Origin: Escherichia phage JP4
Length of the DNA: 64,000 nucleotides
Reading direction: 5' to 3' (one strand)
Sequence record: PQ330092
The stretch's first letter is position 1, and each line of letters opens with the position of its first letter. Shown in pieces: positions 46,754-47,654 of this stretch. A program made the translations under genes and the position numbers. The notes below the pieces were generated by a model, which saw only the letters and a program-made list of their open reading frames with translations, made no database searches and was not told where the DNA came from.

Positions 46754-46781
46754 TGCGTAAAGGGATCTAGTACTGATTCAG

Positions 46782-46847
46782 AAAAAAGTCAAGGCGTTTT
46801 TAAAATTATGCGTTAAAAAAATGCATAGGTAATCCCTTGACTTTTTT
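46782..46847. repeat. inverted repeat AAAAAAGTCAAGG ... CCTTGACTTTTTT flanking ~40 bp, ~60 bp from repeat-unit boundary
   Basis: 13-bp perfect inverted arms read from sequence. Confidence 0.5.
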
Positions 46848-47654
46848 GAAATAAAAGGGATTGGACTATGGCAAAATGCGTAGGGGGCTAAAGGGCGGGT
46901 AACCTAGTAGGCAGAGGAAGTCTGCCGTACTTTGTAGTTTCCAAGCTCCTTTTCCATTTTGCAAATTACATCAAATGTAATCAAAAGTAATCACGCAATG
47001 ATTAGTACTGAATTATTACTTTCACCTTAATTACAATTACCCTTTTACCCTTCGGGGTAAAATTCAATTACCCCTTGAGGCTCCAGCAAAAAGTTGGTTA
47101 GTACTCCATCCTAAATCTCGATCCTAAAAATTTTGGAGTACCTATGAAATAAAAGTTGGATCTTCGAAAGTTGAAATTTACGTTGGGACGTTTATGATTT
47201 GTGGGATATAATGATGTTTGTAGACGGGTAGTTCTCAAGAATATCAGTACTGAATGGTGAAAGAAAGTTATTGACATTATGATTCAGTACTGTATAATGT
47301 TCTACATAGAGAGATGAGTTGCTGCGAACAATTCATTTACTCTACCTCCTGTCGTGAGACAGTACAGAAAAGATAGTTCCTCCTGTGGTGGTACATCTTT
47401 TTGAACCTCATATGAAAATTGTAATAACAGTACTGATATTAACAGAATGGTGTCAGTACTGATTTTAATCTAAAGCATTATGCCACCAGCACAAGCTGGT
47501 GGATTCCCTCTAACAGTATTCAGTACTACATGATAGTCTTCATCCTCCTAGGGTAACATAGTGAGGGCTATGATGGCAGTACTGAATACTCCCTTTCAAA
47601 AGATAGATCTATGGTATAGTACTGACGGATTTTGGGTGTAGTTACCCTGGATGG

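Follow-up and report, generated by a model that had tools for sequence, protein, structure and literature searches.

Organization of the locus

The window, by which we mean the whole 64,000-nt stretch analyzed here (Escherichia phage JP4, sequence record PQ330092), is DNA of an Asteriusvirus, a jumbo coliphage of the PBECO4/G17/fEgEco12 type. It is 93–100% identical to most Asteriusviruses (PBECO4, 121Q, G17, SP27, fEgEco12 and others), with lower identity to the most divergent members. Two tandem copies of a direct terminal repeat (DTR), the second of which runs out of the window, follow each other with a period of 20,114 bp, and an inverted repeat lies between the last gene of copy 1 and the junction of the copies. 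The features are as follows, with negative positions counted back from the cut at the end of the repeat unit.

26761-26812: left DTR edge region (with relatives' loci L016, L035, L023 and L025)
26792-46905, + strand: DTR copy 1, 20,114 bp, an exact duplication of 46906 onward
46544-46753, + strand: ORF, last gene of the DTR, 69 aa, PHROG 17833 (a family of unknown function)
46769-46774: AGTACT motif copy just 5' of the left arm, invariant in the Asteriusvirus alignment
46782-46794, + strand: left arm AAAAAAGTCAAGG, at −124 to −112 from the cut
46795-46834, + strand: A/T-rich 40-nt spacer with an inner 9-bp stem (46806-46814 / 46820-46828)
46827-46845, + strand: conserved block AGGTAATCCCTTGACTTTT, including the right arm; its TTGACT starts at −69
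46835-46847, + strand: right arm CCTTGACTTTTTT, the exact reverse complement of AAAAAAGTCAAGG
46864-46870, + strand: GACTATG, at −42 from the cut
46888-46905, + strand: cut-proximal motif CTAAAGGGCGGGTAACCT, which ends at the terminus; the unique genome then begins TAGCGAC
46906-64000, + strand: DTR copy 2, partial, leaving the window, an exact duplication of copy 1

The two arms are complementary at 13 of 13 positions and enclose 40 nt, and 58 nt separate the right arm from the end of the repeat unit at 46905. The initial annotation, which had described an inverted repeat flanking about 40 bp and lying about 60 bp from the copy 1/copy 2 junction at 46905/46906, was accurate in both respects. 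The exact arm sequence has no second occurrence in the window, and an A6 or T6 run makes up half of each arm. In dinucleotide shuffles, 0.11 perfect inverted repeats of at least 13 nt with a gap of 3–60 nt are expected per 47 kb and 7.5% of shuffles contain at least one, which scales to ~0.8 (about one) per 350-kb genome; the real sequence has three such loci, the other two being copies of the palindromic TCAGTACTGA. Because of this expectation, and because half of each arm is homopolymer, the inverted repeat by itself exceeds chance only marginally. It gains significance from the conservation of its arms and spacing among relatives, described below.

The gene at 46544-46753 ends 29 nt before the left arm, and ~98 nt of unique genome separate the boundary from the next gene cluster; this places the inverted repeat within a 250-nt intergenic gap between two co-oriented transcription units; the cut falls inside the same gap. 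Searches with tblastn found homologs of the 69-aa protein (33–40% identity) that flag the right DTR edge in Klebsiella phage fENko-Kae01, Salmonella phage Munch, Escherichia phage EJP2, Xanthomonas phage XbC2 and Erwinia phage Kaldavass. Relatives carry a sigma-70-like promoter (TTGAyT-N16-TATTAT) ~60–90 nt past the boundary, before the next gene cluster. Just past the boundary in the unique genome (L002:1866-1963 and homologous sites) this promoter reads TTGAyTTTTTATAyGAATCGTATATTAT, and it is followed by a tightly overlapping run of ~65-aa genes of a single PHROG family (4148).

Several other repeated sequences were seen in the window. The ScaI palindrome AGTACT has 238 occurrences in 46.9 kb (for example in 26724-26781, in 27132-28390 and at 46769-46774) and is ~50-fold over-represented in the window, where AGTACTGA has 133 occurrences against 2.6 expected. 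Motifs of this type are built into sigma-70-like promoters at two fixed places, as aaAGTACTTGCA at the −35 and as AGTACTGTATAAT abutting the −10, and are frequent as well within coding sequence and in the form of TCAGTACTGA; no report of an AGTACT motif in jumbo phages turned up in a literature search. A recurrent module, AAAGGGATTGACTCCGGTCAGTCCCTTTgcTATTAT, lies between early genes at 35875-35910, 39895-39930, 43164-43199 and 45422-45457. As it holds a promoter-like −35 TTGACT inside a 12-bp hairpin, it looks like a terminator and a promoter combined. On the minus strand, ~9 paralogous units form an array at 8551-21701 that repeats every ~1.2 kb (repeat families D2-D4); the majority of the units carry a hairpin of the type GCCAGTAtyaAGTACTGGC.

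The terminal repeat and the mapped genome ends of relatives

The initial annotation had reasoned from the premise that the repeat is a terminal redundancy, and this premise is borne out. Over the 17,095 positions that can be compared, the two copies show 0 mismatches. Both edges are sharply and unambiguously defined and agree with the DTR edges of relatives, whether mapped or annotated, 46905/46906 corresponding exactly to their mapped termini. For fEgEco12 a DTR of 20,993 bp was determined by PhageTerm and restriction digests, and window position 46905 aligns with fEgEco12 position 20993. The Sharanji DTR measures 20,668 bp by PhageTerm, in agreement with the ~20,670 bp between edges given by the coordinates of its record. 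For G17 a DTR of ~20 kb was derived from coverage, and the records of G17, WPEC3 and WPEC5 all have position 1 at this boundary, while the annotated DTR end of vB_Ec-M-J (position 21525) equals window 46905. Outside the genus, the CBB DTR is 22,456 bp by read depth and PFGE, with its read-depth end (22456) at the homologous ...GCT|TAGC (the bar marking the cut), and that of fENko-Kae01 is 19,736 bp by PhageTerm, with a terminus at most 1 nt from the homologous boundary; the Kaldavass record both starts and ends exactly at the homologous site. These termini are mapped or annotated in relatives rather than in the window's own isolate, and since the orientation of some records may have been set by comparison with earlier, homologous ones, the placements are not all independent. 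Mapping of termini, proposed with the initial annotation as a check, thus puts the physical ends of relatives 58 nt from the inverted repeat and not far away from it.

The join 46905/46906 is contiguous in 0 of 41 related records, in which every match either ends at 46905 or begins at 46906; records without duplicated ends run ...GGGTAACCT and then TAGCGACTTCG.... Given that no related record contains the join, the tandem arrangement is most simply explained as the right end of a linear record set beside its left end, and not as a sequence present in the phage. Rak2-like phages with a DTR (CBB, fEgEco12, fENko-Kae01, G17, Sharanji) share this architecture and these boundaries, with a ~20-kb repeat ending at CT|TAGC. 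The published DTR descriptions of fEgEco12, G17, CBB, fENko-Kae01 and Sharanji give its length only, with no terminal motif or inverted repeat. The long DTR is already known, whereas the conserved terminal motif and the inverted repeat are not in those published descriptions.

The left DTR edge is also conserved and phased: TTCAGTACT-N-CCrCTA| is found with GAAGTC at +12 to +17 in the window, A4, CBB and XbC2. With the left boundary conserved in this way, both DTR ends look site-specific. The first bases of the DTR form a hairpin here, GGCAGAggaagTCTGCC, and Kae01 starts with a hairpin of different sequence; we rejected this hairpin as a general terminal feature, as it is absent in XbC2, CBB and A4.

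The first ~1.7 kb of the DTR (26792-28579 = 46906-48580) contains no ORF longer than 81 aa, has perfect-consensus sigma-70-like promoters (e.g. 27157-27184), and includes at 27311-27700 the 80-nt RNA folds of lowest energy in the window (−33 to −36 kcal/mol). Together these features suggest that it may encode non-coding RNAs or leader structures. Within it, the non-coding AGTACTCCATCCTAAATCTCGATCCTAAAAATTTTGGAGTACC at 26986-27028 (= 47100-47142), an inverted repeat of GTACTCCA and TGGAGTAC, matches fENko-Kae01 and Munch (record positions 86-128) at 93% identity across 43 nt, and a longer match of 67 nt to XbC2 (record positions 54-120) has 82% identity. These matches make it a second element conserved between genera, situated by the left terminus.

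Conservation of the arms and of the cut-proximal motifs

Within the genus we aligned the window with 13 Asteriusvirus records. Of these 14 sequences, 11 have both arms intact, and among the 11 the last 58 nt before the cut are nearly invariant. The arms are the same in the PBECO4, 121Q and fEgEco12 groups, whereas the spacer at 46795-46834, the most variable part among Asteriusviruses, differs at ~5 positions; over 46540-46905, SP27 matches the window at 100% identity. The fEgEco12 group has TCATAAAAAAGTCAAGG...CCTTGACTTTTATGA where the window has TCAGAAAAAAGTCAAGG...CCTTGACTTTTTTGA. Its right arm is CCTTGACTTTTAT, with the matching change opposite, which in the folded register converts G.U to U-A on both sides in a single covariation event. 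In the remaining members the repeat is altered: Turkey5 and JNE01 have the repeat segment swapped for other sequence and keep the cut-proximal motifs, and A4 carries a repeat of its own that shares the core, AATTGAGTCAA-7-TTGACTCAATT. A miniature transposon with terminal inverted repeats was rejected as an identity of the element, the JNE01/Turkey5/A4 segment being swapped at similar length and not cleanly inserted or deleted.

For the comparison between genera, SP27, fEgEco12, 121Q, EJP2, Kaldavass, L026 (an IMG/VR sequence), XbC2 and Kae01/Munch were stacked ungapped and anchored on the boundary. The TTGACT of the right arm starts at −69 in SP27, fEgEco12, 121Q, EJP2 (as TTAACA), Kaldavass, L026 and XbC2, and at −70 in Kae01/Munch. 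GACTATG stands at −42 in 9 of 11 lineages, at −43 in EJP2, and is absent in A4. The cut-spanning motif CTAAAGGsCrG(G)TAAysCT|TAGC is present in all clades examined and coincides with the mapped termini. Between these blocks the sequence has diverged without indels among phages of E. coli, Klebsiella/Salmonella, Erwinia, Xanthomonas and Pectobacterium. The block AGGTAATCCCTTGACTTTT is identical at 19 of 19 positions between the E. coli phages and Kaldavass (Erwinia), XbC2 (Xanthomonas) and L026, and near-identical in EJP2, whereas the adjacent protein is only 33–40% identical across the four clades with a detected homolog.

The edge of CBB (Pectobacterium) was fetched as a test of prediction. 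It ends ...CTAAAGGCCAGTAACGCT|TAGCGAGG, with GGTAATCCCTT at −78, CACTATG at −42 and a copy of TTGACTTTT at −97; at −69, TTCATA replaces TTGACT. Flanking lengths vary between phages, from 145 to 165 nt between stop codon and cut and from ~63 to 112 nt between cut and next gene, so that only the interval from roughly −80 to +25 has a fixed spacing.

The left arm has a more varied history. In XbC2, L026 and Kaldavass its frame holds AAAAAAGTTAAG, which in the Kaldavass/XbC2 clade pairs with the −97 copy instead, and in Kae01 an upstream AAGTCAG pairs with the −70 block. Extra TTGACTTTT copies, direct or inverted, occur in other clades, including the one at −97 in Kaldavass, XbC2 and CBB; repeated sites of this sort, with arms that keep their sequence, have the look of an array bound by protein. 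In JNE01/Turkey5, EJP2 and CBB, all of which keep the cut motif, the left arm is absent or other sequence takes its place. The suggestion in the initial annotation that a terminus-proximal recognition element would be expected at this position therefore holds in part: the right arm belongs to a conserved module at a fixed distance from the cut, while the inverted repeat as a whole is not universal.

In related genomes the inverted-repeat sequence occurs at one place per DTR copy. A scan of IMG/VR for GGTAATCCCTTGACTTTT returned 8 loci, of which 2 belong to relatives and the others lie in unrelated contexts; 6 unrelated loci are about what chance gives for an 18-mer, by a rough estimate of the size of the collection.

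Interpretations of the element

We considered what the element could do as RNA and as DNA. Folded as RNA, 46776-46856 gives a long, interrupted hairpin (−23.6 kcal/mol, z = −5.6), in which a lower stem of 16–17 pairs, bulged by 2 nt, carries an upper stem of 9 pairs. By raw energy it ranks among the top ~1.2% of same-strand 80-nt windows. The segment from −135 to −55 folds significantly in 8 of the 10 lineages folded (z −2.5 to −7), with partners that are partly different, and gave no significant fold in JNE01 or CBB; in EJP2 and A4 the hairpin lies elsewhere and the block is not used. Folding the whole 166-nt end as single-stranded DNA gave nothing unusual (z = −1.8), and a cruciform in duplex DNA is unlikely with a 40-nt spacer.

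Several specific identities were rejected. TTGACT, a −35 sequence of sigma-70 type, is found at 46837-46842 (+) and 46792-46787 (−). A sigma-70 promoter on either strand is excluded because no −10 hexamer (TAnnnT) lies at 16–19 nt in the window or its relatives, GACTAT being 21–22 nt away. The element is not a canonical intrinsic terminator, having 13-bp A/T-rich arms and a 40-nt interior and being called neither by our scan nor in the ARNold annotation of G17; it does have U6 right after the CCUUGAC stem and lies 29 nt past a co-oriented stop codon. The best Rfam match, bglG-cis-reg, scored 28 bits where the gathering score is 80, and no tRNAs were found. The exact IHF consensus WATCAANNNNTTR is absent in 46750-46905, where only a one-mismatch match on the minus strand was found by eye. 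An operator for the neighboring small protein was set aside, as the flanking genes give only families of unknown function (Pfam, PHROGs). Mini-ORFs (ATG-CAT-AGG-TAA, and one from the ATG inside GACTATG) keep neither frame nor length across lineages. We made no use of AATGCRYRGG, a motif picked post hoc and found only in the E. coli clade; its three occurrences in the window all lie upstream of a repeat edge, at most 90 nt away.

A more general role in RNA is the main alternative to the reading that we favor, if an unlikely one: the hairpin, in the rightward early transcript, would end or stabilize the mRNA of the last DTR gene before the next promoter, as a weak intrinsic terminator or as a protective or processing hairpin at the 3' end. 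Its position 29 nt downstream of the co-oriented gene at 46544-46753, the strength of the fold of 46776-46856 and the significant folds in 8 of 10 lineages are all consistent with this, as are the A6 before and the U6 after the CCUUGAC stem, a layout like that of A-tract/U-tract (bidirectional) intrinsic terminators, with A-run, stem and U-run past a gene. A border between transcription units is plausible here, given the sigma-70-like promoter that follows the boundary in relatives, and TTGACT-containing hairpins stand at unit borders elsewhere in the phage. One pair changed on both sides (G.U to U-A) between Asteriusvirus groups also fits an RNA stem, but this covariation amounts to one event, and JNE01 and CBB lack the hairpin. 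Typical terminators have loops of 3–8 nt, as opposed to an interior of 40 nt and an A/U-rich stem here, and the clear terminators of this phage are short G+C-rich hairpins; the terminator scan makes no call, and the ARNold annotation of G17 places terminators nearby, though none here. An RNA hairpin would also leave unexplained the 19/19 identity across genera, the 8 conserved nucleotides on the loop side of the right arm and the indel-free spacing to the cut, and conservation here goes beyond what pairing needs.

Improbable in our view is a site for a conserved host factor or for another DNA transaction, candidates for which would be −35-like TTGACT decoys holding host RNA polymerase, an architectural or bending site, a replication origin, or a T5-like injection stop, which would sit at the inner edge of the first-entering repeat. 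The DTR is dense in early promoters of sigma-70 type, as is the first-step-transfer region of T5 in early promoters. Conserved host specificity would account for sequence identity across phage genera, both arms carry the near-consensus −35 hexamer TTGACT, and the spacer is rich in A-tracts. Against such a site, neither TTGACT has a −10 hexamer at 16–19 nt in any lineage, 46750-46905 lacks the exact IHF consensus, and CBB lacks the −69 TTGACT altogether. It is similarly doubtful that the left arm, and hence the inverted repeat as such, is without function, the right block being complementary to nearby A-rich low-complexity DNA by chance. The chance expectation (0.11 per 47 kb, ~0.8 per genome), the A6/T6 run in half of each arm and the loss or replacement of the left arm in several lineages would fit this. 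Yet the left arm is unchanged across Asteriusvirus groups whose spacers differ at ~5 positions, a change at its outer edge is matched on the opposite arm, the Kaldavass/XbC2 clade has a homolog in the same frame, and Kae01 and A4 have AGTCA-type inverted partners of their own.

The reading we favor, tentatively and at a little short of even confidence, is that the inverted repeat is the distal part of a putative cos/pac-like terminus-recognition module that serves packaging. The element lies 58–124 nt from the boundary and its arm sequence is single-copy in the window; it is unique in 47 kb, whereas promoters and terminators recur. The −69 element, GACTATG at −42 and the cut motif are phased in 7 lineages, with the left arm only partly conserved, and the arms keep their sequence itself and not merely their pairing. 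That the right arm would be read at the DNA level along with the cut site is suggested by its fixed position relative to independently mapped ends, its sequence identity, far above that of the neighboring gene, and its single copy in the window. The stop codon 29 nt upstream, the T-run after the 3' arm and the G.U to U-A change count against packaging in that they fit an RNA hairpin. Since JNE01/Turkey5 and CBB, which have no stable hairpin here, and EJP2 and A4, whose hairpin lies elsewhere, all keep the cut motif, the inverted repeat may be dispensable or accessory. The left arm, which varies between lineages and is absent in phages that keep the cut motif, is probably accessory and would supply a second inverted site or a hairpin strand.

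In the mechanism that we propose from these sequence comparisons, a single-copy non-coding module of ~150 bp would span the right DTR boundary of Rak2-like jumbo phages and act on DNA in packaging. Terminase, perhaps aided by an accessory or structure-specific factor, would as the packaging machinery read phased elements, namely TTGACT-type sequences at −124 (inverted) and −69, GACTATG at −42, and CTAAAGG..TAA..CT from −18 to −1, and a cut at a fixed distance, at CT|TAGC, would give the right genome end. The arms would be paired binding sites about five helical turns apart, or else a hairpin stem with a fixed 3' strand. We infer the reading of the module by packaging proteins, along with the direction and the order of cutting. 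The terminase has been described as T4-like (CBB paper). Somewhat more hesitantly, we suggest that at least five Rak2-like clades may share such a ~150-bp cos-like module, in which the inverted or hairpin-forming TTGACT pair and GACTATG would position a T4-type terminase that cuts 69/42 nt away, at CT|TAGC, and so makes the right edge of the 20-kb repeat, with CCrCTA| and GAAGTC (+12) setting the left edge.

By analogy, the inverted-repeat element resembles terminus-proximal packaging signals such as lambda cosB and T7/T3 pacB/pacC, and we propose it as a candidate of this kind. The cos site of lambda consists of cosN and cosB, in which the inverted terminase-binding sites R3 and R2 flank an IHF bend. 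As in lambda cos, short inverted sites here lie ~50 bp apart with A/T-rich DNA between them, ~50–130 bp from a site-specific cut, and a conserved module spans the cut. Lambda differs in having 12-nt cohesive ends where this phage has a 20-kb repeat, and there is neither sequence similarity nor an exact IHF consensus here. At the T7/T3 concatemer junction, pacB and pacC act with a hairpin intermediate and an RNA polymerase pause, and an inverted repeat or hairpin together with a transcription-pausing element near the junction is implicated in end formation. Like T7/T3, the phages compared here have exact terminal repeats and unique ends, with recognition and cutting beside the repeat edges. In T7 the terminal repeat measures 160 bp, and the hairpin-forming repeat is located outside it, near the right end; here, in contrast, the repeat is 20 kb and the inverted repeat lies inside it. 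With a 20-kb repeat in place of cohesive ends, no IHF site and a binding role that is only proposed, the element can be assigned to neither the lambda nor the T7/T3 type.

How ends are chosen and duplicated in phages with very long exact terminal repeats is poorly understood, and for Rak2-like jumbo phages repeat lengths alone have been reported so far. If the inverted repeat is merely a transcript hairpin, the finding is an ordinary one. If the packaging reading is true, this would be the first defined packaging signal for jumbo phages with long terminal repeats. The cut motif and the elements at fixed distances from it give a concrete sequence for mutation, terminase binding and plasmid packaging. 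The module would let the ends of many relatives deposited as “circular” be placed from sequence alone, and would aid the design of packageable vectors or engineered genomes for phages that are candidates for therapy.
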